Made by a program: the position numbers and the translations under genes. Under the pieces are notes generated by a model. It saw only the letters and a program-made list of their open reading frames with translations. It ran no database searches and was not told where the DNA came from. This document shows positions 11,538 through 53,781 of a stretch of DNA of 64,000 nt, in pieces (the first letter of the stretch is position 1; every line of letters starts with the position of its first letter). Source of the DNA: Thermoplasmata archaeon (GTDB lineage Archaea > Thermoplasmatota > Thermoplasmata > Halarchaeoplasmatales > Halarchaeoplasmataceae); contig PUPH01000031.1 in the NCBI GenBank assembly GCA_003553085.1, positions 3-64,002 of the forward strand. Direction: 5' to 3'.

Positions 11538-11570
11538 CAAAAAAAAAATAAAAAAAGAAAGAAGGGTTTT
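11538..11570 (-). terminator. Long oligo-T tract after the S8 peptidase stop codon
   Basis: The minus strand reads AAAACCCTTCTTTCTTTTTTTATTTTTTTTTTG. Confidence 0.55.
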
Positions 11571-15476: not shown

Positions 15477-15655
15477 GCTAGACTCCACCTGCTAAGTTTT
15501 CTCCTCAAAACAAAATTTTAAGGCTTTGTTTAATCATGCAATGTAGTTATACAATATAAAGATTTACATCAAGATGGCATATAGAACAAACTATTTATCC
15601 ATGAATCCACAATATATTAGAAACCGCGATTAAAAATAGAAAGGAAAAGATGGGT

Positions 15656-17377
15656 TCAGTAGTCGATAATCCATTCAACACTTTGGTCGGCGTCGTTGTA
15701 GAGCCAGTAGCCCTCTCCAGGTGAGAACTCAAAGTTCGACGGGTCATGATCGTAGGCCAAATTATATTCAACGAAATCATCAAAATATCCTATACAGCTG
15801 ACTTCTCCGGGTAGGTTATGATTTCCAGATGTTGAACTAGGCATACCGACCATGTTCCAACCCGGGTGTAATACAATATCAGTACTGCTCAGTAAATACC
15901 CTTCAATAGTCAATGTATCGTCTGAAGTCATACGTATCCAGATACCCATGGTGTGATCCCAGTCTTGGAGATTGTTGTAGTGCTCATCTCTACCAGGGAC
16001 GTATGAAAACCATTCATGGCTTTCAGCGTCGTAGTACATCACCTGATCATATCGTCCTTGTATCCCAGTATTTGGATCATTTAAAATTGCAGTGATGCTA
16101 GTATCACCATATAACGGAAATAAGTTATAAGATACAAAATTCCAACCGTCGGCATCGCCGTCTGCGTACAGAGGGATATCAAAGGCACCTATATAACCTG
16201 TTTCCTCACCAACATCGGTGTTCTGCTCTTCTAGTCCATTTACTCCAACAGCACGCACTACGTAACACCACCAAACATCATCGGCCGTACCTTTACCTAT
16301 GTCGATGTAACTGTAATCTGCTGAACCGTCAGCGGGTAAGCTGTCTATGAGAGTACTGTCATCCCATGGACCTGTGTGTTCATCCGAACGATAGATATTG
16401 TAATGGCTCACCTCATCTGGATCATCCGGGCTAGCATCCCAGGTCAATAAATTATGATCGTCTCCGTCACCGGAAACCTCTCCTGTAACTAAGATATCAT
16501 CTATCCTCCAGCCCGCATGTGTTGAACCATAATTGTCAACACCGGCGTCCCATCTGATCCAAACACTTTCACCTTCGTATCCGCTGAGATCAACGGTTAC
16601 CTCTTCCCAGTCTGTAGAATGTCCCCATGCTGGTTCTCCCTCAAGTGGATTATCCCATCCACCTTCTACCGTACCATCGTATGCAGGATTCGGATCAGTT
16701 ATGAGATCCCATGAGCCCTCTGGGCCGTCCGTCGATATCTTAAGGTTGCCGCCGTCCCATATTGAGCCATCATCTTCAAATTCCCTCCAGTGCATGAATG
16801 TCATCTCTATCTCAGTCGCATCTGTCAGATCGATCTCAGGTGTTATCAGCCAGCTGAGTCCGCCATTGCTGGGATCGTTATAGTTACCATCGCCGAAGTC
16901 CCATGAATAATCTCCGACTGCGGATCCGTGGGTACGGATACTCCACTCGCTGGCACCGTCAGTCTGTCCTGTGGTATATCCAAGGTCGCCGGATTCCACA
17001 TCATCCTCAAAGATGACTTGAGTAGCTTGTCCGATGTGGTCCACTATCAGATTAGAAGGTGCTGATGGGGGGATACCGTGGATGGCAAAAACGCCGCTGA
17101 TATCTTCGTTCCAGCGTCCCAAGGAATCTACAACACGGACTCGGATCTTACATTCCAAACTATCCTCGTTGGGAACACCCCAGGTATAACTTCCAGTATC
17201 TTGGATATCGCTATCGATGTTATACCATGAATCTCCGGTATCCGTGCTGTACCATATTTCTATACCGTCTATGGGATCTTCCCCTTTTTCAGTAGTCCAT
17301 GTGATGTCTTCTTCTTCGAAGGCATACCATTCTTCTCCACCTATGGGAGAAGTGACGGTTATGGATGGAGGATCCCC
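15656..17377 (-). repeat. Shared C-terminal cassette, copy 3 (most divergent)
   Basis: Begins GDPPSITVTSPIGGEE and ends ...GYWLYNDADQSVEWIIDY. Confidence 0.75.
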
Positions 17378-18376
17378 TTCTGCTACGGGTTGAGCTAGGT
17401 GTCCTAGGCTAGCGATAGCGTGCCTGGTCGTATGGGTTATCTGTGGAAGTGTGAGTTTGTCCAGCGTGTCATCTGCCGTGTGATAGTAGGGGCTAAAGAC
17501 GGTTTCTATGGACAGAGTGGCATTGTATCCCTCGTCCCAAAAGCTGGAATGGTCTGAACGCCATTCAGTGCTGTCGTACTCATAGGTGAAGTTGATTCCT
17601 ATGTTATCATAGGCCTCGCTTACATCCGCCTTGTAATCCAGCATCCAGTTGGAGGGCGTATTTGCGTGAAGTGTGATGGCCAAGTCAGGTTCCGCGTATC
17701 CAACCATATCGTAATTGAGTTTACCCAACAACTGTTCCTCCGTTTCATCGATGTTAGAAGCATAGTAACTGCTACCGTGCAGTCCCTGTTCCTCCGCACC
17801 CCATAGTGCAAAACGGATGGTACGTTCAAAACTGTATTGGGACATTATCCTCGCAGCCTCTATAGTCACTGCTGAACCACTGCCGTTATCGTCTGCACCA
17901 GGAGCCGCCCCGCCCCAATTGTTTATACTATCAAGGTGCCCGCCGATGATATATGTCTGAGGCTCTAGGTCTGGATTGGTTCCAGGATGTACCGCTATAA
18001 CATTCGTGCTGCTGTGCCCACCAGATGTGAAGTTCTGCATATAGGTATCTAAACCGAAGGAGCTAAGTTCTTGATATGCCCATAGAGCTGCATCATCGAA
18101 ACCACTGGTACCGGTTAATCTGGTCGGTACGCCGTTTTCATCCTCAAAACTTTGTAAAGTATCGATGTAATCATATATATTTGATTCTTCGACTTGATCT
18201 ATCATCATCTGTATCTGAGGATCATGTCCTGGAAACACAGGTGTATCGAGGATATACTCATCGCTTTCATGGTCTAAAATAGGTCCTCCAGAGGTCAAAG
18301 ATACTACCTGTGAGAAAACAGATAGCACTAACGATAAACCGACAAGAAGAACCAGTGATTTCATCTTTTTTTTCAT
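15656..18376 (-). CDS. Secreted M28 zinc aminopeptidase. Domain order: signal peptide, M28 domain, shared C-terminal cassette (divergent copy).
   Basis: M28 metal-ligand motifs GGHLDS, GADDNGSGS, EEQGLHGS and DMVG. Only 31 bp separate it from the upstream M14-B gene, with a GGAG SD in the gap. Confidence 0.8.
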   Translation of the reverse strand: MKKKMKSLVLLVGLSLVLSVFSQVVSLTSGGPILDHESDEYILDTPVFPGHDPQIQMMIDQVEESNIYDYIDTLQSFEDENGVPTRLTGTSGFDDAALWAYQELSSFGLDTYMQNFTSGGHSSTNVIAVHPGTNPDLEPQTYIIGGHLDSINNWGGAAPGADDNGSGSAVTIEAARIMSQYSFERTIRFALWGAEEQGLHGSSYYASNIDETEEQLLGKLNYDMVGYAEPDLAITLHANTPSNWMLDYKADVSEAYDNIGINFTYEYDSTEWRSDHSSFWDEGYNATLSIETVFSPYYHTADDTLDKLTLPQITHTTRHAIASLGHLAQPVAEGDPPSITVTSPIGGEEWYAFEEEDITWTTEKGEDPIDGIEIWYSTDTGDSWYNIDSDIQDTGSYTWGVPNEDSLECKIRVRVVDSLGRWNEDISGVFAIHGIPPSAPSNLIVDHIGQATQVIFEDDVESGDLGYTTGQTDGASEWSIRTHGSAVGDYSWDFGDGNYNDPSNGGLSWLITPEIDLTDATEIEMTFMHWREFEDDGSIWDGGNLKISTDGPEGSWDLITDPNPAYDGTVEGGWDNPLEGEPAWGHSTDWEEVTVDLSGYEGESVWIRWDAGVDNYGSTHAGWRIDDILVTGEVSGDGDDHNLLTWDASPDDPDEVSHYNIYRSDEHTGPWDDSTLIDSLPADGSADYSYIDIGKGTADDVWWCYVVRAVGVNGLEEQNTDVGEETGYIGAFDIPLYADGDADGWNFVSYNLFPLYGDTSITAILNDPNTGIQGRYDQVMYYDAESHEWFSYVPGRDEHYNNLQDWDHTMGIWIRMTSDDTLTIEGYLLSSTDIVLHPGWNMVGMPSSTSGNHNLPGEVSCIGYFDDFVEYNLAYDHDPSNFEFSPGEGYWLYNDADQSVEWIIDY

Positions 18377-18383
18377 TTTTGAT

Positions 18384-18387
18384 CTCC
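18384..18387 (-). promoter_or_regulatory. Shine-Dalgarno GGAG for the M28 gene, inside the 31-bp gap after M14-B
   Basis: The minus strand reads TAAATGAGCATGTATATATCCAAGGAGATCAAAAATG. Confidence 0.5.
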
Positions 18388-18407
18388 TTGGATATATACA
18401 TGCTCAT

Positions 18408-20123
18408 TTAATATTCGATCGTCCAATCTACATCATGATCCGCGTCGTTGTACACCCAATAACCGCTACCGGGCGAGAACTCGAATCCACTGGCATCGGT
18501 ATAAGCGACGTTATACTCCTCACTTGCATCGAAGTATCCCACTGTCGTTACTTCCGCCGGTAGGTTGTGGTTCCCGGCTGTAGAGCTAGGTAGTCCCACC
18601 ATGTTCCATCCAGGATCCAGAGTTATGGTCGTAGTACCGGGTTCGTTACCTTCGATCGTTAGCGTATCGTCCACGTTCATCTGGATCCAGACACCCATGG
18701 TGTTGTCCCACGTACCTAGGTTGTTGAAGTGATCCGCTCTATCCGGTACATAAGAATACCAACGTCCAGAATCGAAGTACATAACTTTATCGTAATTACC
18801 GGCTATACCGTTATCCGGGTCCTCAAGTATATCCACTAGATCGGTGCTGCCGAGCTCAAGATTGAAGGATACGAAGTTCCAGCCGTCGGCATCTGCGGTC
18901 AACTGTATATCCATGGTAGTGGTTTCTGCACCCGGTTCCTGCACCGCGTTTGTGTTATCTTCCTCAATACCATTGGTACCTACCGCTCTAACGACATACC
19001 ACCAGAATATTTCATCAGCCGTACCTCTTTCGGGGTCGATATACTCGTAACCTGTAGAACCGTCGGCGGTAACACTGTCTATCAGGGTACTTCCGTCCCA
19101 CGGTCCATCACTGGATTCAGCTCGATAGATATTATAGTGACTGACTTCGTCAGGATCATCTGGACTAGCATCCCAGGTGATCAGATTGTCTTCGTCTCCA
19201 TCCGAGATGATGCCTTCCGCCGTCACCAGGATATCGTCGATACGCCAGCCCTGGGCACCACCATCATAATCTTCGACTCCAGCGTCCCATCTAAGCCATA
19301 TTGAGTCTCCGGCATATTCACTCAGATCTACCGTTACCTGTTCCCACCCCTGAGAATCAACCCAGGCTGGCTCTCCTTCTATGGGATTTTCAAATCCGGT
19401 TCCAAGGGTTACATCATAAGATGGGTCGGGGTTTTCGATCAAAGACCATTCTCCGTTGGGATCCGCACTTTCCACGGATATCTTTAGATTTCCTCCGTCG
19501 TAATAGTTCGTCCATGAGTCATCGTAATCGAAGTCCCTCCAGTGCTGGAATGTCAACTCCACCTCCTCGGCTTCTTCGGGTATATCGATCTCGGGAGATA
19601 TCAACCAGCTGACTTCTCCTACTTTCTCATAGCCTCCATCGCCCCAATCCCAGGAACTGTCTCCGACTATGGATCCGTGGTCTCTGATATCCCATTCGTT
19701 CGTGCCTTCACTGCTGCCTGTGGTATATCCAAGGTCCTCCGATGCATCATCATGGAATAATACTTCTTGTCCTGAACCAACATGCTGTACATCTAGATTT
19801 TCCGGAGGGTCTGGAGGTGCGCCTTCGATGGTGAAGACATCACTGATGTCTTCTCCACTCCTACCTACCGTGTCTATTACGTTCAACCTGACACGACATT
19901 CCGTACTATCTTCATTGGGTACGGTCCATGTATAGCTTCCCGTATCTGCTACTCCGGATCCGATAGATGCCCAGCTATATCCATCATCTACACTGTACCA
20001 TAGATCTATAGAATCGATAGGATCGTCCCCCTGTTCGGTAGTCCAAGTGATATCTTCTTCAGTGCCCGCGGTGAAGGTCTCTCCTCCTTCAGGTCGGTTT
20101 ATGGTGATATCCGGGGGATCCCC
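18408..20123 (-). repeat. Shared C-terminal cassette, copy 4
   Basis: Begins GDPPDITINRPEGGE and ends ...GYWVYNDADHDVDWTIEY. Confidence 0.8.
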
Positions 20124-21656
20124 CACCTCTTCCAGAACGATATCTATCCTCTGGCCCCATTCTTCACCGATGGTAAAATCTTGATCATTATGATCGGCAG
20201 AAATACGGAAGGTGTCGTCGGTCGTGTATCCACTATCTACAAGATTTCCAAAGTTCAATTCGTAGTAGCCGTTACTGTTCGTCCCGATGGAGATCGTTTC
20301 TGATGTATCGACGTTCTCTACCGTTACTGGAACATCCACCACAGAACCTCCTGAAGAATATTCGACCGTACCGTAAACCAGGTAGGGGACCGGAGGATGG
20401 AGGTGGTTTGTACCGTCTCCGAGATCTATATCGGCTATCCTTCCTTGATATATCAGGGCGTCATCAACGTCTTTATTGATGGTCATTATCTCATCTGGTG
20501 GTGGATAAAATCCATGACCTCCGGTTTCAAGTTCGAAAACCATCGAGAAAGCTCCGGTTTCATCATAGACCCAATCTCCAGCACCACCAGGTGCTGAGTA
20601 ACCGATCTCTTCTCCCGCCTGACCATAGCTGTAGGGATCATTCTCATCCCCCATCTGAGAGGTCAGAGAAGTCATATGTCCTGCCATCCCTCGGTACCAA
20701 CTATCATGGGGCGATGGATCAGTAGAATTACACCAAGGGATCAACATGGTCCCGGCATAGCTGTGGATGTTCTGATACGTGTCGATATCGTTTTCAAGTA
20801 TGAAATCCCTGAGAGACTTAGTCTCATACTCAGAAAACGGTGCCTCGCCGTGATAATCGTCTGCACCACCTCTTGAATTGCCGTCTTCCCAATGTATATC
20901 CCAATTCCGATTAAGATCTACACCTACAGCATCATCAGGGATCGTATCGTTACGGTTTTTCCGCCAATTATTTTGGTTTCCGTAATCGCCGTCACTATCA
21001 TAGATATACCCATCAGGATTGACCATGGGCATAACGTAGATCCTACGATTGTTGAGCATCCAGTGGATGGTCTCGTTGGAGTCGTATTCGTCCAGTATCC
21101 GCCACATGAAGTAGGCTGAAGCCTGAGTGGATGACCATTCTCTTGCGTGCATCGATCCATCCACAAGGAAACCAGGTTTGTGATCCACCTGTGTATCTTC
21201 GTCAGAGGTCACCTCCAGGACCCATAGATCTCTGCCCTCCCAGGACTGGCCTATGTTGATCTTCGATACAAGATCGGGATACTCGTCGACCAGGTCATCG
21301 TACCAATCATTCAACTCACTCACACTGGGATAGTGGTTGGCAAAAGGATAGTCGGTTTCAAGGATCTTTTCTCTGTCCTCTTCCTGCCTAATAACCTCGA
21401 CCTCCATACCTGAAGATTCCAGATAAGACAAGGTTGAATCATCGGTTTCAACTAATAGATTCATACCATCTCGCACCAATATTTCAGTATTGGCTTCGTT
21501 TATACTCTGTAAGTCCGCTAGAGATCTCATCTGGACTCCAGCTTTGATCACCTCTACATCTTCATCTTCGTAGTGGTTTACAGCTACAAAACAGACAGAA
21601 AACATCAAAAGCAGAACTACCGTTATTACCCCGAGGGGGATCTTTGTATTGTGCAT
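18408..21656 (-). CDS. Secreted M14 zinc carboxypeptidase (paralog B). Domain order: signal peptide, M14 domain, carboxypeptidase-regulatory-like domain, shared C-terminal cassette.
   Basis: SMHAREWS and NPDGY motifs. Collinear with and similar to paralog A. GGAGG SD 6 nt before the ATG. Confidence 0.85.
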   Translation of the reverse strand: MHNTKIPLGVITVVLLLMFSVCFVAVNHYEDEDVEVIKAGVQMRSLADLQSINEANTEILVRDGMNLLVETDDSTLSYLESSGMEVEVIRQEEDREKILETDYPFANHYPSVSELNDWYDDLVDEYPDLVSKINIGQSWEGRDLWVLEVTSDEDTQVDHKPGFLVDGSMHAREWSSTQASAYFMWRILDEYDSNETIHWMLNNRRIYVMPMVNPDGYIYDSDGDYGNQNNWRKNRNDTIPDDAVGVDLNRNWDIHWEDGNSRGGADDYHGEAPFSEYETKSLRDFILENDIDTYQNIHSYAGTMLIPWCNSTDPSPHDSWYRGMAGHMTSLTSQMGDENDPYSYGQAGEEIGYSAPGGAGDWVYDETGAFSMVFELETGGHGFYPPPDEIMTINKDVDDALIYQGRIADIDLGDGTNHLHPPVPYLVYGTVEYSSGGSVVDVPVTVENVDTSETISIGTNSNGYYELNFGNLVDSGYTTDDTFRISADHNDQDFTIGEEWGQRIDIVLEEVGDPPDITINRPEGGETFTAGTEEDITWTTEQGDDPIDSIDLWYSVDDGYSWASIGSGVADTGSYTWTVPNEDSTECRVRLNVIDTVGRSGEDISDVFTIEGAPPDPPENLDVQHVGSGQEVLFHDDASEDLGYTTGSSEGTNEWDIRDHGSIVGDSSWDWGDGGYEKVGEVSWLISPEIDIPEEAEEVELTFQHWRDFDYDDSWTNYYDGGNLKISVESADPNGEWSLIENPDPSYDVTLGTGFENPIEGEPAWVDSQGWEQVTVDLSEYAGDSIWLRWDAGVEDYDGGAQGWRIDDILVTAEGIISDGDEDNLITWDASPDDPDEVSHYNIYRAESSDGPWDGSTLIDSVTADGSTGYEYIDPERGTADEIFWWYVVRAVGTNGIEEDNTNAVQEPGAETTTMDIQLTADADGWNFVSFNLELGSTDLVDILEDPDNGIAGNYDKVMYFDSGRWYSYVPDRADHFNNLGTWDNTMGVWIQMNVDDTLTIEGNEPGTTTITLDPGWNMVGLPSSTAGNHNLPAEVTTVGYFDASEEYNVAYTDASGFEFSPGSGYWVYNDADHDVDWTIEY

Positions 21657-36235: not shown

Positions 36236-39200
36236 ATGGGTTTCTTAGACTCTATAGATAATTTACTGGATAAGGAAAAAAGAGTGTTGAATAAAGCACA
36301 AAAATACCTTGATAAATCTGAAGAACAACGCCAGGAAGGCGATATCTCAAAGGCGAAGGAACTGTGTGATAGAACATGGGATCTTCTCAAAAAGCACGAA
36401 GAAAACTTCTCAGAACAGCAGGAAGAGGTGTCTAAAGCTTTCGATCGATTAGGATGGCTGTACTACCATCTGGGCTACGAAGATCATGCACTTCACTCAG
36501 AAGACCAAGCCATCAGATATGATAATAACAACATCGAAGCTTTGAACCACAAAGCGTTGATCTTGACTCAGAAGGGGAGTCCTAGTAAAGGGTTGAAGTT
36601 GTTATCCCGAGCGCTTGAGATAGATCGCAAAAATAAGTATTCGTTGATAAATCGTGGAGACATCCTCACAAAGATGGGGAGGAAAGAAGAAGCGGTCAGG
36701 ACTTATGAAAAAGCTCTAGAAGTGGATGAAGACGATATATCCGTTTACGATAAGATACTCGAAATTGAACCAAGGAACGGTGAGATCTGGGCAAAAAGAG
36801 GGCTCGCCCTGAAAAGAGGAGGTAATTACGAGAAGGCCATTGAATCCTTCAACAAATCCCTCGAAATCAACCCAAATCAAGAAAAGATATGGCTGTATAA
36901 AGGTCTCACCTTAAGAGATATGGAAAAATTGAACGATGCAGTGGTTTGCTTCGATAACGGGCTGGAGATAAACCCGGATAATAAAGACCTTTGGAGCGCT
37001 AAAGGGACCACTCTACACCTATTGAAAAGGGACGAAGACGCATTGGAGGCTTTCAGCAGAGCTCTAGAGATAGATTCTGAAGACAAGGACCTCTGGAATC
37101 GAAAGGGGACCATATTGTATGAGATGGAACGTCACATAGAGGCAGTAGAAGCCTTCGACAAAGGTATCGCTATAGACCCCAGCGACGTGAGACTACTCAA
37201 CAACAAAAAGGAAGCTTTGAAGCCACTCGGTAGATACGAAGAGCTGATCAGAGTTTGTGATAGGATCCTTGAAAAGAATCCCTCCGATGCTGGAAGTCTG
37301 TATGATAAAGGTGTAGCTCTCCACAAGTTGGGAAAACCGGAAGAAGCTATAGCACAGCTGGAAGAAGCCCTGTCATATAATCCCAAAGACATCTACGCCC
37401 TGGAGAGGGAGAAGAAGATATACAAAGAACAGCAGGACTGGGAAAACGTTGTCCGTACTGCTGACCGTATCCTAGAATTTGAGCCCAACAACTGGGAGGC
37501 TTGCTATGATAAGGGTACATCATTGCTAAAGTTGAACAATCCACAAGGGGCGTTAGAAAGCTTTGAAGAAACCCTCAGGATAAAGGATAACGACCTAGAT
37601 GCTCTTGTGGGTAAGAAGGAAGCATTGAAATCACTGGGAAATTACGAAGAAGTGGTCTTCGTGTGTGATAGGATAATATCCATGGATCCTGACAACATAG
37701 AGGCTTACTTCGATAGGGCAAAATCACACGAAAAGCTGAGAGAATACGATAGAGCCATCCGAGATTATCGTAAGGGCCTTTCTTACGATCCTTCCAACGA
37801 TGAAGCATGGAACGACAAGGGTCTCTGCGAATATCGTTTGAAACGATATGAGGAGGCGCTAGAGAGTTTCGATAAAGCGATAGGTATCAATTCAGATGAT
37901 AAAAAATACTGGAACAATAAAGCTCACTGTTTGGTCAAATTGGAAAGGTACGAAGAGGCGATCAAATCCTACGATAAAGCTCTAGAGATCGACGTCAGCG
38001 ACGATAGGATATGGTACAGCAAAGGATTGGCCCTTGAGGGACTGAATCGATATGAAGAAGCCATCATATCATACGACAAGGCTTTGGAGATCGATGATGA
38101 AAACGCAAGAGTACTCTACAGTAAGGCGATAGCGTTGGAATGGTTGGACAGATACGAGGAGGCGGTGGAAGCCTTCGATAAATCATTGAAGATCAAACCT
38201 AACAACCGCTTCGCATACATCCGTAAAGGACTAGCCCTGGCCAACCTCGGCCGTCATGAAGATGCCGTTCAAGCCTACGATAGAGCTCTGGATATGCAAA
38301 GTCAGGACATCAAGTTATTGGAGAAAAAGAAAGACTCTTTGATAACCCTAACACGATGGAGCGATATCATAGAAACGTGCGATAGGATACTGGATATAGA
38401 TTCCAATAATCTACAAGCATGGAGGGATAAAGGCGAGGCTTTAAAAAAGCTAGGAGAGCCTCAAAGTGCTTTAGATTGTTTCGAAAGGGCATTGTCCATA
38501 CAAGAATCGGTTGTAGATCTGGTTAAGGCAAAGGATCTTCTAAAAGAGCTGAACATGCCCGAAGAAGTGGTTGAACACTGTGAACGTATAATCGAAGATG
38601 ATCCGGAAAATATCGAGGCATGGCAAGATAAGGCCATGGCCTTGAAGTTGCTCAAGAGAAGAGAGGAGGCACTAGAGGCTTTCGATGAGGCGCTAGACCT
38701 GGATCCCGATAACAAGAAGATGTGGCTGCACAGGGGCATGGTGTTCGAACACCTGGAACAATATGAAAACGCCATAAGATCTTACAATGAAGCCCAAGAA
38801 TTAGATCCTACCGATGTGATACCCATCGCACGTAAGGCAGAGTGTCTACGTAAGATGGAAAGATATTCAGAGGCCTCAGAATGGTTCGATAAAGCCATGG
38901 ATCTTGAACCCGAAAATACCCTATACATCAACCGGAAAGGAAGATGTTTGATAGAGATCGGAGAACTGGAGGAGGCTGATGAACTGTTCGAGAGATCATT
39001 GAACATAGACGACCAGAATGGCACCACCTGGAAATACAAAGGAATCCTCGCTGAAAAGTTGGAAAAATACGAGGAAGCGATCAGTGCCTTGGATACCGCT
39101 GTTAAACTAGGGATCGACGATAGTGAGGTATGGATAACCAAGGCTGAATGTTACGATTACCTCGGAAGGAAAAGGGATGCCATCGATACTTATGATAAGG

Positions 39201-40414
39201 CAATAGATCTATCTCCAGACGATGCTCATCTTTGGTTTAAGAAAGGCGAGTTACAGATGGAGATAGAAGATCACGCAGGTGCTCTGGAAAGCTTCGACGA
39301 GGCTACGGAGATAGATCCGGATTACGAAGAAGCATGGTTCGAGAAAGGACGTGTTTTAGAGGAGGTCAGTAGGTATCAGCGGGCGATAGAGGCATACGAC
39401 CGTGCCATCGGTTTAAAGTCAGAAGATAAATACGCCTGGAATAACAAAGGTCGAGTACTTATCGAAGTGGGTAAAACGGATAAGGCTATACGTGCATTCG
39501 AGAAGGCACTTGAACTCGACCCTGAGATGGAATCAGCTAGACATGGTCTGGACATAGCTAGAGAAAAGGAAGAGGAAAGGAAGTTAGAAGAGTACGCCAA
39601 ACGGATACTTGAATATGAATGTTCCAGGAATCGTGAGATCTCGAAAGAAGAAGCTTTCAAAAAATGCAATGTCCCCTATAACTACATAGACGATGTGTTC
39701 GGTTATCTATCACTACGTGAAGCCCTGGACATCGGTGCTTTAGATGAAGAAGAGAAAGACAAGTTGGAGAACGCTTCTCGAGCGGTATTGAAGAAACTAG
39801 CATTGGTATCTCGGGAAAGCCTGATAAAAAATGGGGTGAGGCTCTGTGACATAGTCACTAACTTCCCCGACAAATCGATACCGGAAGCCAAAAGGGTCCT
39901 TGAATACATCCGTGAAGTCGATTCAATGGATATCTCTGCCGAACAGATAGATGAAAAAACCGAACGTTTATTGAGGAAAAGGGTGCTGACGCTCCCTGAA
40001 GAAAAACGTGATTTCCTCACGCTGATCACCAATCTGAACGTGGGTATATATCAAGCGAAGAAGGTACTGGCCGCATTGAAGAAGTTCGAAGGAAAGGATT
40101 ATAAACCGCCCAGTACAGAGATATCGACTCTGGTACAGGAAGATTTCGTAAGAAAAGAAGATAAAGCGGAGATAGACACCGTTGGTGAAGAGCAAAAATC
40201 TGAAAAGCCGAAAAAGAAGGTGAAAAAGAAGGTGAGTTCCGAACCGGAGCCGGACTGTCATTTCTGTGGCAAAGCGACCAACTACAAACACGACTGCAAT
40301 GAACTACCTTTATGCCCTTCCTGTGAATCCAAACATGCTGGAGAATTCTGCCCAGAGTGTAGTGAATTGATCGGTTCCATTGACACCGACGAAGAAGACG
40401 ATATGATGCTCTAA
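36236..40414 (+). CDS. Giant TPR-repeat protein (1392 aa) with a non-TPR C-terminal region ending in a zinc ribbon
   Basis: More than 30 consecutive 34-aa TPR units. The C-terminus has CHFCGKATNYKHDCNELPLCPSCESKHAGEFCPECS. Confidence 0.8.
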   Translation: MGFLDSIDNLLDKEKRVLNKAQKYLDKSEEQRQEGDISKAKELCDRTWDLLKKHEENFSEQQEEVSKAFDRLGWLYYHLGYEDHALHSEDQAIRYDNNNIEALNHKALILTQKGSPSKGLKLLSRALEIDRKNKYSLINRGDILTKMGRKEEAVRTYEKALEVDEDDISVYDKILEIEPRNGEIWAKRGLALKRGGNYEKAIESFNKSLEINPNQEKIWLYKGLTLRDMEKLNDAVVCFDNGLEINPDNKDLWSAKGTTLHLLKRDEDALEAFSRALEIDSEDKDLWNRKGTILYEMERHIEAVEAFDKGIAIDPSDVRLLNNKKEALKPLGRYEELIRVCDRILEKNPSDAGSLYDKGVALHKLGKPEEAIAQLEEALSYNPKDIYALEREKKIYKEQQDWENVVRTADRILEFEPNNWEACYDKGTSLLKLNNPQGALESFEETLRIKDNDLDALVGKKEALKSLGNYEEVVFVCDRIISMDPDNIEAYFDRAKSHEKLREYDRAIRDYRKGLSYDPSNDEAWNDKGLCEYRLKRYEEALESFDKAIGINSDDKKYWNNKAHCLVKLERYEEAIKSYDKALEIDVSDDRIWYSKGLALEGLNRYEEAIISYDKALEIDDENARVLYSKAIALEWLDRYEEAVEAFDKSLKIKPNNRFAYIRKGLALANLGRHEDAVQAYDRALDMQSQDIKLLEKKKDSLITLTRWSDIIETCDRILDIDSNNLQAWRDKGEALKKLGEPQSALDCFERALSIQESVVDLVKAKDLLKELNMPEEVVEHCERIIEDDPENIEAWQDKAMALKLLKRREEALEAFDEALDLDPDNKKMWLHRGMVFEHLEQYENAIRSYNEAQELDPTDVIPIARKAECLRKMERYSEASEWFDKAMDLEPENTLYINRKGRCLIEIGELEEADELFERSLNIDDQNGTTWKYKGILAEKLEKYEEAISALDTAVKLGIDDSEVWITKAECYDYLGRKRDAIDTYDKAIDLSPDDAHLWFKKGELQMEIEDHAGALESFDEATEIDPDYEEAWFEKGRVLEEVSRYQRAIEAYDRAIGLKSEDKYAWNNKGRVLIEVGKTDKAIRAFEKALELDPEMESARHGLDIAREKEEERKLEEYAKRILEYECSRNREISKEEAFKKCNVPYNYIDDVFGYLSLREALDIGALDEEEKDKLENASRAVLKKLALVSRESLIKNGVRLCDIVTNFPDKSIPEAKRVLEYIREVDSMDISAEQIDEKTERLLRKRVLTLPEEKRDFLTLITNLNVGIYQAKKVLAALKKFEGKDYKPPSTEISTLVQEDFVRKEDKAEIDTVGEEQKSEKPKKKVKKKVSSEPEPDCHFCGKATNYKHDCNELPLCPSCESKHAGEFCPECSELIGSIDTDEEDDMML

Positions 40415-42113: not shown

Positions 42114-42422
42114 TCAGGCCAGTTTCATAGTTATTTCCATGGAAGACACGTTGGCGGTACCATCGTCACCTTCACGTTCTAACTGTTCAGTGTCGGTTAT
42201 GATCTCGATGATCTCTGACTCTGGCACGAATCTGTGCCTGGTGATCTCCGCTACATCCACTGCTTTACTTATGGCTCTGCCTCTTGCTTTGATCACTACT
42301 TCGTTCGAGCCACTGTTGAACTGAGTCACGACAGCCATTACGTAGTTCATGGTTTCTTTTTTTCCGATATACACTGTGTTTTCATCATCCATCTGTATTC
42401 CTCCTGGATCGATTCTAGGCAC
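42114..42422 (-). CDS. albA: Alba (Sso10b) DNA/RNA-binding protein
   Basis: [44 protein letters not shown] is near-identical in pattern to Alba. Confidence 0.9.
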
Positions 42423-42490
42423 GACTCTAACTTAAGGCAGGTATTTAATATTTTGGTTTTTGAACTATAAACATGATCTTCAGCAAAAAG

Positions 42491-42628
42491 CGGACTCGCC
42501 GGGAGTTCCGTCCGATGAGGTGTTTCCTCACCAATTTTCGAACCCGGGTTTGGGGCTCCGGAGGCCCCAGTGATATCCATTGTAGTCCAAGCACGAGTAT
42601 GTACGTTGGATTGCTACACCACGAGCCC
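42491..42628 (-). tRNA. tRNA-Arg (anticodon CCG) with two putative 32-nt non-canonical introns. The mature form is about 74 nt with no encoded CCA.
   Basis: Acceptor stem GGGCUCG/CGAGUCC. D-arm GUGU-AGCA[intron]UGGAUA-UCAC. Anticodon stem-loop GGGGC-CUCCGGA-GCCCC. T-arm CCGGG-UUCGAA[intron]U-CCCGG. Discriminator G is followed by an oligo-U run. Confidence 0.6.
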
Positions 42629-42780
42629 TATTTATTTTTGAATTCCGTATATCCACACTTTCCGCAGGATACCCTATCTTCATGTACCGCTAGGAAAACA
42701 CCATCGCCGCATTTTGGGCAGCTGCGTCTCAAACGCTTCAGCTTGCCGTTCTCTACTTCGTACATATCTTTCTTAGCCAT
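42628..42780 (-). CDS. rps27ae: Ribosomal protein S27ae (eS31), 50 aa. Not in the ORF track because it is under 60 aa.
   Basis: Manual translation gives [50 protein letters not shown] with a C4 zinc ribbon. The stop codon's last G is the first G of the tRNA. Confidence 0.8.
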
Positions 42781-42785
42781 CTCTA

Positions 42786-43088
42786 TCAACCCTTCAACTT
42801 GTTTCTAGCTATCTGGTAATCGCGTTCGTACTCCAATGCATCTTCTTTCTTATCGTATAGTTTTGCCTGGACCCTGGCTCTATCCATACCGAATTCTGAT
42901 CTGATCTTGTTCACTACTATCTTATCCTTTTCAAAACCGGTTAGTGATGCGATCCCTGCCTTTATCTGCTCTCGTGTGGGCGTGGGACCAGACTCATGAT
43001 GTACTGTTAGTACGAGTTCCCTTCTATTTAGGAGTTTGTTCTCCTTTTCCTCTTCTATGTCTATCGATATTTCCGACATTCTATCCAC
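42786..43088 (-). CDS. rps24e: Ribosomal protein S24e
   Basis: [27 protein letters not shown]...KLYD matches the S24e pattern. Canonical position upstream of S27ae. Confidence 0.85.
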
Positions 43089-46558: not shown

Positions 46559-47938
46559 TCATCCGGAAACGAAAGACAAGTCCTCCACGCGTACATACGG
46601 CAACTCCATGCAAAGCACGGTGACTACGAGCTCAATGTCTGAAGATATATTCGATATATTTGTAAAGAGGTCGAAAACATTTCCAGATACCATCATCTGC
46701 TTCAGCGGATGTACTATCTCACCACCTTTGATCATATGTCCACCTTTGACTACTCCCGAAAAATCACCGCTGACCGGATCGACATCTCCAGAAAATCTAT
46801 TGATCAGAACTCCGTGCTCAACTTGTTCGATCATACTATCATATCCGATGTTCCCCGGTTTGACCACCAAGTTCGTTGGATCTATATAGGGTACCGACCG
46901 TGGCCCTCCGGAGGCGTGCCCAGTCGATACGGTCTCCATGGCACTGGCAGTATAGCTATTGTGAAACAACGACTTCAGTACCCCGTCTTCAACGACGGTC
47001 ATCTTTGGAGTGGGCAACCCTTCACGGTCGAAAGATCGGCTCCTCAACGCATCCTTCTTCGATGCATCATCGATCAATGTGAAGGATCCCGAAGCGATCT
47101 GCTCCTCCAACTTATCTCCCATGGGACTCAATCCCTTCACCACCCTATTTCCTTTCAAGGGGTATAGTAACCCCATGAACAAGATTTGTGCAAGGGCGTG
47201 TGGAGAGAAGATACCAACACCTTCGAAACTTTTACCCTTTTCAGCACCGAGGTTATCGACTGCGGCCAAAACCAGCTCTCTGGCAACACTCTCTACATCT
47301 ATGTCCTTGATCGTTATGGAACCGCCGGCTTTAACATCCATGTTGGATACCTCACCATGGGATGATGCCAATCCGATACCGAGATAGTGGAAACCGCTGG
47401 ACCGCTCGGATTCGGCTATACCCTTCGAGTTGATAACAGCCCTTTCTACGTCGTGGGATGCAAAAAAACCTTCGTTGAATCTGAACCTATCATCCGCTTC
47501 TAGAGCGGTATGAAGGAAGTTTTTTCCATACTCCAAGCCATCTTCGACCCCGAAATTCTCGATATCTTTGTCGTAGAGTCCATCTAATTTCTTGACTTTC
47601 ATCGGCGATGGTATATTATTATGCTTATCTGGTATCGAGGACCGGGCTAGCTTGACGGCTTCCTTTATCTTGTTTATGATAGCATCTTTGTCCAAAGAAT
47701 TGAGAGATGTGAATCCAAGCTTGCCATCTTGAATATAACGTATGCCCACCTGCTCCTTCTCATGGCATCTAGACATGTTGATCTCATCCCGTTGTATGCC
47801 CACATCTATGTTCTTGTCGGAACCCATATACAGTTCGATATCTCCGGGCACATCGACCTTTTCTAATATTTCCGCACCTAGATCCAGTAACTTTGACAAA
47901 TGAATACCTCCTCTACTTTCCTCCCACGGTGGCTTCAC
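46559..47938 (-). CDS. pmbA: PmbA/TldE-family protein (metallopeptidase-like, no HExxxH), copy 1
   Basis: Overall TldD/PmbA (U62) architecture without the HExxxH motif. Downstream partner of tldD-1 with overlapping ends. Confidence 0.7.
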   Translation of the reverse strand: MKPPWEESRGGIHLSKLLDLGAEILEKVDVPGDIELYMGSDKNIDVGIQRDEINMSRCHEKEQVGIRYIQDGKLGFTSLNSLDKDAIINKIKEAVKLARSSIPDKHNNIPSPMKVKKLDGLYDKDIENFGVEDGLEYGKNFLHTALEADDRFRFNEGFFASHDVERAVINSKGIAESERSSGFHYLGIGLASSHGEVSNMDVKAGGSITIKDIDVESVARELVLAAVDNLGAEKGKSFEGVGIFSPHALAQILFMGLLYPLKGNRVVKGLSPMGDKLEEQIASGSFTLIDDASKKDALRSRSFDREGLPTPKMTVVEDGVLKSLFHNSYTASAMETVSTGHASGGPRSVPYIDPTNLVVKPGNIGYDSMIEQVEHGVLINRFSGDVDPVSGDFSGVVKGGHMIKGGEIVHPLKQMMVSGNVFDLFTNISNISSDIELVVTVLCMELPYVRVEDLSFVSG

Positions 47939-49298
47939 ATCTCATATTCGGTCCGCCGCCATCCACCTTCGCGCTCTGGAACTTACCGCAATAGCCCGAA
48001 CCCATGCTGAACTCGAAGTTGTCTGCTACCGCGTCTACACTCCTGAGTACATCGAAGCCAGAACCAGAGATGGATACTCCTCGTAGTAGTTCTGTCAATT
48101 CACCGTTCTCTATACGCCATGCCTTCTCGACTCCGAATGTAAACTCAGCATTGGCATCGGCCTGCCCACCTTTTGCACCTTCTAGATAATATCCATCCTT
48201 AGTTTCCTCTATCATCTCATCCACACCGTATTCTCCTGTCTCGATGAACGTGTTCGTCATACGTATTATCGGTGGGTCGGAATACTGATAAGCTCGTGCG
48301 TTGCCCCTAGGTGTCATCTCGAGTACCCGGGCGGTCTCAAGATCACACAGGTATCCTTTCAGCACACCGTCTTTTATTAGCTCAGTTCGTTGAGACAACG
48401 TTCCTTCGTCATCTACCGGCGTCCATCCTGCTGCGTGTGGGTCCGCCACCCCATGATCCACTAGGGTGACCAATTCACTCGCTACCTTCTTCCCCAATTT
48501 ATCCTGTGCAACGGAGCCCGAGAGTACAAAATCAGCTTCCACCGTATGTCCGATGGCTTCGTGTGCTATCAACCCGACCAGCTCCGGATTCAGGATCACC
48601 TTAGCGGGACCACCTTTGGGATGTTCGGCTTTTAAGAGTCTTTGAGCCGACCCAACGGCCTTATCCGCCATCTCATGAGGTGTACTTTTAGCGAACAAGT
48701 CGTCCCATCCACCGGTGACCCCTCTGCTTTCGATCCCCGATATCTTTTCACCATGAAGGTTTGCATAAGCTATCGTATAAAAATCCACTTTTTCATCGTG
48801 TATCTCCACCTCGGTCCCAAAGCTGTTGACGATAAACTTGTCGTCCTGCATCTCGTTCCAAAGACATTTGGCAGAGTTGATGGATTTTTTATTCCTCATC
48901 TCCGAGTCTAGTTCTTTCAATAATTCTATCTTCTTTTCGATAGGATGATCTGTAACACTATCGTTCACCTCTGCACGAAACACTCCGGAGCAAGGGATGA
49001 CATCACCGATTTCGCCTACCTTTTGTGTTTTCAACCGTGAGGTGATACGTGCCGCCTTCTCCGCTCGTTGGATGGTGTTGATTATATCTTTGTCATCCAT
49101 CTTACTGGTGCTGCTGAACCCCCAGACACCGTCATGAAGAACTCTCACCCCGATACCAGAGTAGGTGGACGAGTGTAGGTCCTCTACATCGCCCCTTACT
49201 ATCTCTATCTTCTTCTGCTCTCTAGAATGATACCTTAGCTCAACATAGGCCGCCTGGCTCTTCTCTACTAACTTCGATAGCTTATCTTTCATATTCAC
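47913..49298 (-). CDS. tldD: TldD family metalloprotease, copy 1
   Basis: HEAIGHTVEAD (HExxxH), C-terminal GxC motif and the U62 family pattern. Confidence 0.75.
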   Translation of the reverse strand: MNMKDKLSKLVEKSQAAYVELRYHSREQKKIEIVRGDVEDLHSSTYSGIGVRVLHDGVWGFSSTSKMDDKDIINTIQRAEKAARITSRLKTQKVGEIGDVIPCSGVFRAEVNDSVTDHPIEKKIELLKELDSEMRNKKSINSAKCLWNEMQDDKFIVNSFGTEVEIHDEKVDFYTIAYANLHGEKISGIESRGVTGGWDDLFAKSTPHEMADKAVGSAQRLLKAEHPKGGPAKVILNPELVGLIAHEAIGHTVEADFVLSGSVAQDKLGKKVASELVTLVDHGVADPHAAGWTPVDDEGTLSQRTELIKDGVLKGYLCDLETARVLEMTPRGNARAYQYSDPPIIRMTNTFIETGEYGVDEMIEETKDGYYLEGAKGGQADANAEFTFGVEKAWRIENGELTELLRGVSISGSGFDVLRSVDAVADNFEFSMGSGYCGKFQSAKVDGGGPNMRCEATVGGK

Positions 49299-50623
49299 TT
49301 ACCCGAGATGGTTACATCCTTCAATTTGACCGAAGGAAGCTCGATGTTTATAGTAGCAGATCCGATGCTGTCATAGATCTTCTTGTGATCATCACCCAAC
49401 TCCATGGTATGCAATGATCCGGGTAGATTACCTGATATCATCAGACCTTCTAAACGTCCCTTTTTGATACCATCTTCCACCAACCATGCGGGATTGGCCA
49501 CCACACTAAAGTCACCGCTTGCAGGACTGGATGTATGGGCACCCATGACATTGTCCACCAATATCGTTCTACCTGCAAACAGTTCCTCTCTCGGTATATC
49601 CTCACCACTCATCATCACGTTCCTACTGCCTATCTGAGGGGGTGATTTAAAGGATGGGCGTACTCCATTGGCAGTACTCTTTGTGCCGCTTTGTACAGCC
49701 TCTTTAAGATCGTAAAAGAAGTTGTCCAATATTCCTCCGGATATAAGAGATACTGGTGAGCTGAGTACACCCTCATCGTCGAAGGGGAAACTGCCAAGCC
49801 CCCAATTAGATGTGGGATCTTCCACCAGATCGATGTATCCTGCGGCCACTTCATCCCCTACTCTATCTTCATACACAGATTTACCTTTCCTAACGTTCTC
49901 ACCGTCAAAGGATGGGAGCAATCCGAAGTGGATCAATATCCCCATGGCGTCGGGGCTTAAAATTACCGGGATCTTATCTCCTGGGATCTCCGCTAGATCT
50001 TTCATAGAAACTACCCTTTCACCTGCGGCGATACCTACCTCTTCAAAATCTATATCGTACTTTCTACTGCTAGATGATTCACTGGCCATAAGAGATGTCT
50101 TCTCACCGGGCAAAGTCGCGGCCACGCCTCCAGTGATGATGGATCCGTCCTGTGAGTAAAAAAGACCTTTGGTATTGCCGACGATCACGTTTCCTGAAGC
50201 TATCTTCAATGTACCTCGAGAGGGGAGTATATCGTCATCAACGGATGAGGCACCATCTACCATCTGTTGAGCTATCTCAATTCCATCGTCCATTGCCCTT
50301 TCCACTTTTTTATCGTACGTCTTTACTGCTGGTGGTTTCTCGCCCATCGGGAGCTCCATCTCCGTCTTTGGAGATAAAGATGTTAGCTCTATGGCTCTTT
50401 TTACACCGATCTCTTCTTTTCCAGGTGCGCAGTATCCGAAGCCGACTCTTCCGTCCTTAAATACCCTGATGCCTAAACCCATATCCTCATACTCATTACT
50501 GTCGGATACCTCTCCGTTCATTATCGAATAGCTAAGGATCCTTGAACGGATTCCATAAACATCTCCTGTCAACCCCTTTTTCTTCAACTGCTCTAAACAC
50601 TCTTTGATACCCTCTTCGATCAT
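49295..50623 (-). CDS. pmbA: PmbA/TldE-family protein, copy 2
   Basis: U62-like without HExxxH. 4-nt overlaps with both flanking genes. Confidence 0.7.
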   Translation of the reverse strand: MIEEGIKECLEQLKKKGLTGDVYGIRSRILSYSIMNGEVSDSNEYEDMGLGIRVFKDGRVGFGYCAPGKEEIGVKRAIELTSLSPKTEMELPMGEKPPAVKTYDKKVERAMDDGIEIAQQMVDGASSVDDDILPSRGTLKIASGNVIVGNTKGLFYSQDGSIITGGVAATLPGEKTSLMASESSSSRKYDIDFEEVGIAAGERVVSMKDLAEIPGDKIPVILSPDAMGILIHFGLLPSFDGENVRKGKSVYEDRVGDEVAAGYIDLVEDPTSNWGLGSFPFDDEGVLSSPVSLISGGILDNFFYDLKEAVQSGTKSTANGVRPSFKSPPQIGSRNVMMSGEDIPREELFAGRTILVDNVMGAHTSSPASGDFSVVANPAWLVEDGIKKGRLEGLMISGNLPGSLHTMELGDDHKKIYDSIGSATINIELPSVKLKDVTISGK

Positions 50624-52020
50624 TCTCTACCACCTACCGTGACCTGGGAGATGAGGGTGTTACCCCCACCATCGGTGACCGATGCACTCTGACCCTTTCC
50701 ACAGTGTCCGATCCCCATACCAGTCTCTTTTGTGATACCTACGATGTTCTGTAGTGTTTCAAGAGTAAATCCGTTAAAACTTACGTTCCTCAGTGGTCTC
50801 CCTATCTCTCCGTTCTCTATGAGATATGCGACCTGTGCGTTGAATTGGAAGGTACCCTGGGCGGTGTTCACCTGTCCACCGCTTGTAGATCTTGCATAGA
50901 TACCCTTGTCTATATCTTCTATCAATTCATCAAAGACCATATCACCGGCTTCCATGATGGTGTTACTCATCCTTACCAAGGGTTTGACACGGAAGTCCTC
51001 GGCTCTAGCACCACCGTTGGGTTCCATGTTCAGCTTCCATGCATTTTCACGGTCCAGTATGAAATCGTTCAGCACCCCGTCTTTGACCAGTACACGGTTC
51101 TTCGCTCGTGTTCCCTCGTCGTCGAAGGGGAAACTCCCGTAACCGTCCATCGTTGGATCATCCTTGATGGTGACTATCTCGGAGGCTACCTTCTCACCTA
51201 TCTTTCCCTTCAAACAACTGTTACCGCTGGAAACCAGGTCGCCCTCTGCGGCGTGGCCGAAGGCTTCATGGGAGAATACACCGGTAAGGTGTGGATCCAT
51301 TACCAAAGGTAACTTTCCCGAAGGCGGACTCTTTGCTTCTAAAAGGGCTCCCAATCTGTCCAGTAGGATATCGGCCTTCTCGAATGCCTCACCGCTCAAC
51401 TCGAAGCCGCCGGTTCCCCCGATGGCTTCGGTAGCCATCTGTACCGTATCGCTTTTACCGGTGACTATCATATAGGTTACCAGTCGAGGTATCTCCATGG
51501 TCACGTGCGTACCTTCACTGGTGATTATCTCCTTTTCCACCAGTAGATCTCTGTATCGTAGATCGGTCGATCTGACGATATCGCTCTTTAGATGGGTTTC
51601 CAACTCCTGTAAAAAATCCAGCTTCTCCTCGGGACTCACATCAAGAAAGCTGTCTTTCATGGGATATACAGCCTTCTCCTGCAAAGGCTCCACCTCTGCC
51701 AGTCCAGTTCTATCTTTTTTCAGCTTATCACTGTTCTTCGCCATGGATAACGCTCTTTCCAGCGATCGTTCTAGTGAAGATAGATCAGCAGTACCTACAT
51801 AACCCCATCCATCACCATATAATACCCTGGTCATGGCACCTTCTTCTTCCCCCTGTATCACCGTTTCCGGAACTCCATCCTTTAGATAAAGGATCTTCCT
51901 GTGCCACTTTTCCTTTCGTATATCACAATACTGAGCACCCTTCTGAAGGATACTTTGTATGAGCTCTTTTTCTTCCATCGCTTGCGAAGAGGACCTTGGG
52001 GATAAAAGTATTTTGTGCAA
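50620..52020 (-). CDS. tldD: TldD family metalloprotease, copy 2
   Basis: HEAFGHAAEGD (HExxxH). The start may be the internal Met (MEEKELIQ). Confidence 0.75.
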   Translation of the reverse strand: MHKILLSPRSSSQAMEEKELIQSILQKGAQYCDIRKEKWHRKILYLKDGVPETVIQGEEEGAMTRVLYGDGWGYVGTADLSSLERSLERALSMAKNSDKLKKDRTGLAEVEPLQEKAVYPMKDSFLDVSPEEKLDFLQELETHLKSDIVRSTDLRYRDLLVEKEIITSEGTHVTMEIPRLVTYMIVTGKSDTVQMATEAIGGTGGFELSGEAFEKADILLDRLGALLEAKSPPSGKLPLVMDPHLTGVFSHEAFGHAAEGDLVSSGNSCLKGKIGEKVASEIVTIKDDPTMDGYGSFPFDDEGTRAKNRVLVKDGVLNDFILDRENAWKLNMEPNGGARAEDFRVKPLVRMSNTIMEAGDMVFDELIEDIDKGIYARSTSGGQVNTAQGTFQFNAQVAYLIENGEIGRPLRNVSFNGFTLETLQNIVGITKETGMGIGHCGKGQSASVTDGGGNTLISQVTVGGRE

Positions 52021-53238: not shown

Positions 53239-53781
53239 TTAATCCTCGAATATTGCCCCACATCCGGGACACTCATCTGCACTCTCGGACACTTCGCTGC
53301 CGCACAGGGGACACATGAACTTTAATTCAAAATCATACTCTTCTTCCGATTCCTCCATCAGGAACGCGAACTGTTTTATTTCCTCGACCACCGATTCAGT
53401 ATCCGTGATCTCGAAAGTGCGGTCATCCACGTTTTCGAGTAGTTCTTCCAGAAGGGTCTGGTGGATGATCTCCTTTAGATCCGCTCCGCACTCCGGGCAT
53501 TTCTTTTCTTTTATGGTGGCTTCAGATCCACACTCAGGGCATGCTACGGTCTTTCCCGGGTCCATCTCGTGCCTGACTTCCTCACCCTCTTCGGATAACA
53601 CTGAAACATAGGGTACCCTGTTTCCGCTCCTATCTACGAACCTTTGCCCCATCTGAGATATTATCCACTCTAAGTCAACATCACATTCTGGGCACTTCTT
53701 ATCGGAGCTGGAGATATCCGAACCACATCTCGGGCAGTGGTCGGGTCTTTTTGTTTCACTTTCCTGCTCGGATGACATCAT
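53239..53781 (-). CDS. Triple zinc-ribbon protein (three CPxCG-x9-10-CPxCG units)
   Basis: CPRCGSD...CPECDVDL, CPECGSE...CPECGADL and CPLCGSE...CPGCGA. Confidence 0.6.
   Translation of the reverse strand: MMSSEQESETKRPDHCPRCGSDISSSDKKCPECDVDLEWIISQMGQRFVDRSGNRVPYVSVLSEEGEEVRHEMDPGKTVACPECGSEATIKEKKCPECGADLKEIIHQTLLEELLENVDDRTFEITDTESVVEEIKQFAFLMEESEEEYDFELKFMCPLCGSEVSESADECPGCGAIFED

Follow-up and report, generated by a model that had tools for sequence, protein, structure and literature searches.

The minus strand of the window (the whole 64,000-nt stretch of DNA that was analyzed) carries at 42491-42628 what we read, with a probability of roughly 93%, as a functional archaeal tRNA-Arg(CCG) gene. 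Judged from its sequence, the 74-nt coding region is split by two short introns that would be spliced by proteins, the first at 17/17a of the D loop and the second at 59/60 of the T loop. A sequence-only reading had proposed a tRNA-Arg(CCG) gene on this strand, and every element that it listed was found where it had been placed, with ARAGORN in agreement after in silico splicing. Coordinates of the gene, its parts and the adjacent features are collected in Table 1.

Table 1. Positions in the window of the predicted split tRNA gene, its parts and the neighboring features.
Feature	Position	Strand	Description
Pre-tRNA-Arg(CCG) gene, complete	42491-42628	-	138 nt (three exons and two introns); CCA not encoded
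Exon 1	42612-42628	-	17 nt; acceptor 5' strand, U8, G9, D-stem 5' strand, A14 G15 C16 A17
Intron 1	42580-42611	-	32 nt; D loop, between mature nt 17 and 18 (Sprinzl 17/17a); hairpin, 3' end CUAC-AA; BHB geometry
Central helix H of intron 1, exon strand	42614-42617	-	G12 U13 A14 G15; partner CUAC
Central helix H of intron 1, intron strand	42582-42585	-	CUAC, followed by AA, the final 2 intron nt, in the 3' bulge
Exon 2	42537-42579	-	43 nt; U17a G18 G19, D-stem 3' strand, anticodon arm, 4-nt variable region, T-stem 5' strand, U54-A59
Anticodon CCG	42559-42561	-	
Intron 2	42505-42536	-	32 nt; T loop 59/60; 9-bp hairpin, 3' end CGGA-AC; BHB geometry
Central helix H of intron 2, exon strand	42539-42542	-	U54 U55 C56 G57; partner CGGA (CGAA in nine relatives)
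Central helix H of intron 2, intron strand	42507-42510	-	CGGA, followed by AC, the final 2 intron nt, in the 3' bulge
Exon 3	42491-42504	-	14 nt; U60, T-stem 3' strand, acceptor 3' strand, discriminator G73
T5 run	42485-42489	-	One base (C) past G73; likely archaeal oligo-T termination signal (putative function)
rps27ae, upstream neighbor	42628-42780	-	50 aa; Pfam Ribosomal_S27; TAG stop at 42628-42630
alba, downstream neighbor	42114-42392	-	
TATA-like box CCAAAATATTAAATAC upstream of alba	42441-42456	-	Near-identical A/T box at the same place in all relatives, by eye

Read 5' to 3', the minus strand runs GGGCUCG-U-G-GUGU-AGCA, 32 nt, UGGAUA-UCAC-U-GGGGC-CUCCGGA-GCCCC-AAAC-CCGGG-UUCGAA, 32 nt, U-CCCGG-CGAGUCC-G. 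Reading of this strand bore out three proposed elements: the acceptor halves GGGCUCG/CGAGUCC form 7/7 pairs with G3-U70 as the single G-U, the anticodon arm GGGGC-CUCCGGA-GCCCC has a 5-bp stem, U33 and the anticodon CCG, and the T stem CCGGG/CCCGG pairs at 5/5 positions. When both 32-nt segments are deleted, the D loop AGCAUGGAUA (with A14, G15, G18, G19 and A21) and the T loop UUCGAAU are restored. The restored D loop is numbered A14 G15 C16 A17 U17a G18 G19 A20 U20a A21, and A20 can be placed only once intron 1 has been removed. The spliced product also has a D stem of three Watson-Crick pairs plus U13-U22, a variable region of 4 nt and discriminator G73. ARAGORN calls the product left after deletion of 42580-42611 and 42505-42536 as tRNA-Arg(CCG) with a normal cloverleaf, and at 74 nt it has the mature length that had been predicted. 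The identity elements used by arginyl-tRNA synthetase in bacterial and yeast systems are C35, G36 and A20 in the D loop. All three are present in the spliced tRNA, C35 and G36 within the anticodon CCG and A20 in addition.

Both introns can be folded with a 4-bp central helix in which each cut lies 2 nt into a 3-nt bulge. In intron 1, G12 U13 A14 G15 pair with CUAC, and the 5' cut falls in the 3-nt bulge C16 A17/A (the slash marks the cut), which is followed by the 5-bp helix h' UCCAA/UUGGA running on into the hairpin. The 3' cut follows AA (AA/U17a); here the outer helix h is absent, and the site lies in a loop of ~10 nt bounded by the remainder of the D stem. As folded from the sequence, the motif of intron 1 is the relaxed HBh' form with a perfect 5' half. 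In intron 2, U54 U55 C56 G57 pair with CGGA, the 3' bulge A C/U60 is closed by the 5-bp T stem (h), and the 5' bulge A58 A59/A is followed by a 1x1 mismatch (columns 94/118) and then by the 9-bp h' hairpin. Its predicted motif is nearly a strict hBHBh'. The strict hBHBh' form, with both bulges closed by outer helices, is found in neither intron 1 nor intron 2; relaxed BHB forms are counted as members of the family (PMC5829648). The sequence-only reading had staked its introns on BHB or hBH' motifs at the junctions, and BHB or HBh' folds are available at both.

The fold of the window precursor in which the BHB motifs were enforced has an energy of -57.2 kcal/mol, versus -58.0 for the MFE structure, and the stability of the pre-tRNA relative to shuffled sequences corresponds to z = -4.3. 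In the window sequence, pairing probabilities for intron 1, central helix included, are at least 0.95. For the central helix of intron 2, the ensemble probability in the window sequence taken alone is 0.13-0.16, due to competition from an alternative register; when the T-arm substrate is folded by itself, the BHB structure is the MFE.

A functional tRNA gene might instead retain one or both insertions as expansion segments, or lose them through another nuclease or by self-splicing rather than through the BHB pathway. The relaxed motif in the D loop lends itself to this view, as does the narrow-specificity a'2 enzyme that Thermoplasmata are expected to carry (PMC5829648). However, insertions of 29-32 nt are far below the size of group I or group II ribozymes, and retained insertions would wreck both the interaction of G18G19 with the T loop and the T loop itself. 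The invariant intron ends CUAC-AA and CGRA-AN are precisely those demanded by the 4-bp ruler of EndA, a regularity for which other known pathways offer no explanation. We therefore consider retention or removal by another route very improbable. Note that a C/D-box guide RNA inside either intron was also considered and discarded, since UGAUGA and CUGA are absent from both and 32 nt is too short.

Relatives of the locus were collected by two routes. A pattern describing the anticodon arm and T arm, applied to one genome per species, gave 13 loci, mostly from Thermoplasmata. Homologues of the neighboring S24e protein (44-74% identical) then supplied additional syntenic contigs; this word-index search, which has low sensitivity, returned 11 candidates. 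In the genomes of four related species, the arm pattern matched once per genome, at the tRNA-Arg(CCG) locus only. Contigs from the same species (L001-L008) are identical over the tRNA locus and so are uninformative for conservation; the window locus is identical to contigs of GCA_003553355.1, GCA_019594325.1 and GCA_019594275.1, and no species-representative genome has an exact match to the window. A metagenome scan with an exon-2 pattern produced one contig, identical to L013. Ten distinct versions were compared: the window, L009 (Ca. Halarchaeoplasma halalkaliphilum), L013, L016, L018 (Thermoplasmata MAGs), L025, L031 (Ca. Saliniplasma), L024, L028 and L029. Both insertions occur at identical sites in nine further distinct versions, which come from Ca. 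Halarchaeoplasmatales (Thermoplasmatota) and from one unplaced Thermoplasmata genome. Ca. Halarchaeoplasmatales is a halophilic Thermoplasmatota order known from soda-saline lake MAGs and includes Halarchaeoplasma, Saliniplasma and others (PMC11332174); the named relatives of the window locus belong to it.

All ten versions, when spliced, are called by ARAGORN as a 74-nt tRNA-Arg(CCG). Mean pairwise identity over the ten is 95% for exons versus about 62% for introns. Between the window and the nine relatives, 15-17 of the 17 positions of exon 1 and 38-43 of the 43 positions of exon 2 are shared, and exon 3 is identical at 14/14 positions across 10/10 sequences. Intron 1 measures 29-32 nt in relatives, with 13-24 of 32 positions the same as in the window, and intron 2 measures 30-32 nt, with 17-23 of 32 the same; the length pairs encountered are 32+32, 30+30 and 29+30 nt. 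Although the rest of intron 1 diverges, its central helix and CUAC strand are invariant in 10/10 sequences. Within the central helix of intron 2, pairing is complete (100% of cells) across the ten sequences, the one change being U-A to U-G (CGAA to CGGA) in the window only.

With the hand-drawn structure laid over the alignment (A2), 97.2% of cells are paired, versus 31-51% after a shift of the 3' partners by 1-3 columns. Changes on both sides affect nine pairs, namely four of the five h' pairs of intron 1, four of the nine h' pairs of intron 2 and a single anticodon-stem pair, and the covariation score was reached by 0 of 500 shuffles. RNAalifold recovered the hand-drawn structure with the alignment as its sole input. 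A compensatory change is also present in the D stem of L018, where G10-C25 has become A10-U25.

These comparisons bear on whether the locus is a dead tRNA gene, decayed after two insertions, with CGG served by another gene or through wobble by tRNA-Arg(UCG). Standard tools do not recognize the locus, CGG is a minor codon (65 of 19,361 codons in the window ORFs, or 3.4 per thousand, and 7% of arginine codons), and a 64-kb window leaves room for a second copy elsewhere in the genome. The exons, however, are 91-100% identical between distinct versions where the S24e proteins are 44-74% identical to that of the window, with the insertions at about 62%. Moreover, compensatory changes uphold the BHB pairing, and the intron side of each intron-exon helix is preserved, neither of which a decaying pseudogene would show. 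A dead gene is thus highly unlikely, and the functional, spliced gene remains the reading that we prefer.

The junctions predicted for this gene can be compared with orthologues that lack introns. Eight were found (L019 from Aciduliprofundum plus seven Thermoplasmata and allied loci), all with the same layout as the spliced tRNA of the window. In L019, an intronless tRNA-Arg(CCG) lies one base past the rps27ae stop codon, and the sequences across the two sites, GUAGCA-UGGAUA and UUCGAA-UCCCGG, are exactly the predicted ligation products. L020 is also intronless, is located downstream of rps27ae and has the predicted junction sequence. Intron 2 is absent in 8/8 intronless orthologues and intron 1 is absent in L019. 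The intronless orthologues therefore give the junction expected if removal of 42505-42536 regenerates the T loop UUCGAAU, and L019 gives the one expected if removal of 42580-42611 regenerates A14, R15, G18G19 and A21 in the D arm. The proposal of two 32-nt non-canonical introns with exact ends accordingly stands, as BHB geometry and intronless junctions agree. These two fix the junctions: ARAGORN accepts many adjacent deletion pairs at the real locus, and so it cannot fix them alone.

The unspliced locus escapes standard searches. ARAGORN in default or canonical-intron mode finds no tRNA in the whole 64-kb window. The Rfam tRNA family (RF00005), run on unspliced sequence, has no match at the gathering score in the window and none at E≤10 on the local 500 nt, so that the unspliced gene falls outside RF00005; every intron-containing relative is missed by the same model. 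Intronless orthologues score 58-62 bits (L019, L020 and L021; 59.8 bits for L019). We attribute the miss to the introns that interrupt the unspliced sequence and not to the gene itself. Counts of tRNA genes in related metagenome-assembled genomes may thus be too low where they were not obtained with an archaeal search that takes BHB motifs into account. In L018, at 4499-4572, ARAGORN reports a 74-nt "tRNA-Arg(ccg)" that begins within intron 1 and ends within intron 2, whereas the real gene is 138 nt (4464-4601); this call is an example of how such genes can be misannotated as a wrong, truncated tRNA.

To measure how often such a gene arises by chance, pairs of segments of 12-60 nt were deleted from 21 intergenic gaps on both strands, and 127,174 trial products were scored by ARAGORN. 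The filter was the 4-bp BHB central-helix rule alone (the four exon nucleotides ending 2 before the 5' cut pair with the four intron nucleotides ending 2 before the 3' cut) and was blind to the proposed introns. ARAGORN matched 168 products, and 167 of these lie in the rps27ae-alba gap, the exact proposed pair among them. The single match outside this gap was rejected as spurious, its tRNA being on the strand opposite to the rule in an AT-rich spacer. A scan with single BHB deletions over all intergenic gaps of the window gave zero tRNAs, and no split tRNA other than the target emerged from the single- or double-deletion scans of the window. Two low-threshold ARAGORN calls with odd introns were set aside as false positives: c14448-14623 (tRNA-Phe(gaa)) lies inside a subtilase ORF (Peptidase_S8) and c58351-58471 (tRNA-Arg(cct)) inside a beta-CASP/RMMBL ORF, both with strong Pfam matches. 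Comparison of the two introns with each other and with the rest of the window revealed no relationship and zero further copies, and therefore gives no sign of intron transposition at the locus.

The same data address the idea that the resemblance to a tRNA is fortuitous, or that the segment is a different element such as part of the short ORFs that overlap 42347-42808 on either strand. ORFs of 49-111 aa do overlap the locus on both strands. However, indels between relatives are 1-3 nt, not multiples of three, and so out of frame; control trials of the other gaps gave 1 spurious match in about 104,000, versus the 167 at the locus. Gene callers left the spacer empty on related contigs except L002 and L006, whose calls have no Pfam match. 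The probability of chance resemblance or of another element is in our estimate negligible.

The split tRNA-Arg(CCG) gene is embedded in a conserved neighborhood. Its order on the minus strand (H+-PPase, rpoE', spt4, DUF359, rps24e, rps27ae, tRNA, alba, mazG-like, rio1, KH) is common to the relatives, and the gene content of the window is archaeal (TFB, RFC, Alba, RpoE', Spt4, Rad50/Mre11, HerA, membrane pyrophosphatase). In the window, L013 and L016, the rps27ae TAG shares its G with tRNA position 1. There is no spacer between the two genes in L009, a spacer of 1 nt in L019, and one of roughly 8-36 nt in other relatives. Upstream of the tRNA, in the conserved rps27ae coding region, no convincing TATA box was found at a fitting distance. 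Due to the start of the tRNA on the last base of the stop codon and the lack of a promoter-like box, the tRNA is probably the tail of a ribosomal-protein transcript. If rps27ae and the tRNA are co-transcribed, RNase P cleavage at G1 would leave an mRNA that ends in UA, with an incomplete stop codon. The box CCAAAATATTAAATAC is, by its sequence, probably the BRE/TATA promoter of alba, in which case the tRNA and alba would be separate transcription units.

Transcription would reach the gene at the end of the rpoE'-spt4-DUF359-rps24e-rps27ae cluster, or would begin at an internal promoter that has escaped recognition, and would stop at the T5 run. An oligo-U terminator had been predicted after the mature tRNA. 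Such a run is indeed present in the window, but not throughout the relatives: most of them have a run of 4-6 T no more than about 15 nt from the gene, and some have none. RNase P would then cleave at G1 to free the 5' end, and trimming of the 3' trailer would precede CCA addition, which is expected since no CCA is encoded. EndA is predicted to cut four phosphodiester bonds, with the 4-bp helices serving as rulers, after which an RtcB-type ligase would join exon 1 to exon 2 and exon 2 to exon 3 and would probably circularize the introns. The mature product would read CGG codons, and the occurrence of these codons in the window ORFs (3.4 per thousand) speaks for a demand for such a tRNA.

Copies of the 3' end of the tRNA were observed in Saliniplasma-like relatives, where the last 15-17 nt (exon 3, ATCCCGGCGAGTCCG) are repeated once or twice more within 60-175 nt downstream. 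These copies were located in L028 at 2581-2770, in the corresponding region of L029, in L031 at 2603-2679, and also in L032 and L033; in L028 they fall within a perfect direct repeat of 47 nt, which in addition includes a CCGTTTT...AAAACGG hairpin. The window has no extra copies. Immediately 5' of the extra copies, the sequence is closer to an intronless T loop (5 of 8 bases) than to the intron end (1 of 6 bases). Judged by sequence, the copies resemble traces left by recombination or integration events at the tRNA 3' end. On a speculative view, this end may be a site at which recombination or integration is directed, and the 59/60 intron would make the uninterrupted target shorter. In L031, a 59-nt unit is present in three tandem copies between the tRNA and alba (2707-2883), each with ATTCTGCGGTGTCCG, which is 71% like the exon-3 repeat.

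Several other features of the window were recorded. At 46559-52020 (minus strand), four paralogous PmbA/TldD-family metallopeptidases, each of 442-466 aa, are encoded in a row. A run of four predicted peptidases of 906-1305 aa (M14 carboxypeptidase, S8 subtilase, M28 and M14) occupies 8291-21656 (minus strand), and these large peptidases suggest a proteolytic lifestyle. Two TPR-repeat proteins, both very large (715 and 1392 aa) and highly acidic, are encoded at 551-2698 and 36236-40414 (plus strand), the latter with a Cys-rich, zinc-ribbon-like C-terminal tail. Double zinc-ribbon proteins are encoded at 120-491 and 53239-53781.

The enzyme that would remove the two introns raises a separate question. 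EndA and ligase genes were not found in the window or the related loci, either by Pfam searches (including 40 window ORFs) or by tblastn with M. jannaschii EndA, a query that matches PDB 1A79. Endonucleases of the a4 and a'2 types cut canonical BHB motifs only, or cut relaxed motifs poorly, and "Cluster II" euryarchaea, Thermoplasmata included, are described as having the a'2 type only (PMC4033280, PMC5829648). The relaxed motif of intron 1 stands in tension with this expectation. An order-wide two-intron tRNA in a Cluster II lineage could be explained in two ways, and we put forward only tentatively, as a doubtful proposition, that it bears on enzyme classification: if EndA is an ordinary a'2 enzyme, then the link between architecture and motif would fail; if it is not, these archaea would possess an unrecognized broad-specificity variant. 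The ten variants of the two motifs constitute a natural substrate set for narrow versus broad endonuclease specificity in halophilic Thermoplasmatota.

The presence of several introns in one tRNA gene had been offered as a taxonomic clue. It points to halophilic Thermoplasmatota (Ca. Halarchaeoplasmatales) and not to Thermoproteales or Thaumarchaeota, which are the groups classically rich in multi-intron tRNAs. In those groups, many genes carry several introns and intron transposition is described (Sugahara et al. 2008, as cited in PMC4033280; tRNAscan-SE 2.0, PMC8450103). The window gene resembles theirs in architecture and in the presumed cutting by EndA at non-canonical BHB motifs followed by ligation, and differs from them in that one gene is documented, its introns are mutually unrelated and its taxon is euryarchaeal. 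Comparable tRNA genes are known from Thermoproteales, Thaumarchaeota, Korarchaeum, N. equitans, ARMAN-1/2, M. kandleri and M. thermautotrophicus (PMC4033280).

Close parallels to intron 2 come from ARMAN-2 (Ca. Micrarchaeum acidiphilum), in which pre-tRNA-Cys(GCA) has a 59/60 intron and pre-tRNA-Pro(GGG) has T-loop introns at 53/54 and 59/60 (PMC3239211). The two systems have in common a short intron of BHB type at the T-loop position 59/60 and the presence of several non-canonical introns in a single gene; in both, a 4-bp helix made of T-loop bases plus the T stem forms the outer half of the motif. Unlike ARMAN-2, which belongs to DPANN, the window gene represents another isoacceptor and another phylum, and its second intron is in the D loop rather than the T loop. 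The ARMAN-2 enzyme is of the e2 type and was shown to cut relaxed motifs. For intron 1, the nearest comparison is pre-tRNA-Glu(UUC) of Methanopyrus kandleri, which contains a canonical intron and, within the D loop, an intron of the relaxed HBh' type (PMC5829648). That gene is also euryarchaeal, with two introns of which one is a relaxed HBh' in the D loop; it differs in having one canonical intron (37/38), whereas both introns of the window gene are non-canonical. Its enzyme is of the (ab)2 type, whereas Thermoplasmata are grouped with lineages "exclusively encoding the a'2-type".

Among Euryarchaeota, the tRNAscan-SE 2.0 survey lists 25 non-canonical introns and 7 two-intron genes in 6,970 tRNA genes (PMC8450103, Table S7). 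The same table gives six non-canonical introns and one two-intron gene for three genomes of Methanomassiliicoccales, one non-canonical intron for five genomes of Thermoplasmatales, and zero for DHVE2 (Aciduliprofundum), the last in agreement with the intronless L019. The Methanomassiliicoccales and Thermoplasmatales introns come from the same class as the window gene, Thermoplasmata. Since the Methanomassiliicoccales tRNA-Arg(CCG) genes in the present comparison (L011, L015) are intronless, the introns tabulated for that order belong to different genes and insertion events. Within a literature search of incomplete coverage, which lacked the original description of the order, no work on tRNA introns in Ca. 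Halarchaeoplasmatales was found. The kind of gene is known, with precedent even within the class; what appears to be new is the gene, the pair of intron positions and the finding that they are fixed throughout a halophilic order. A euryarchaeal lineage in which such genes are rare thereby gains a two-intron tRNA that is conserved order-wide.
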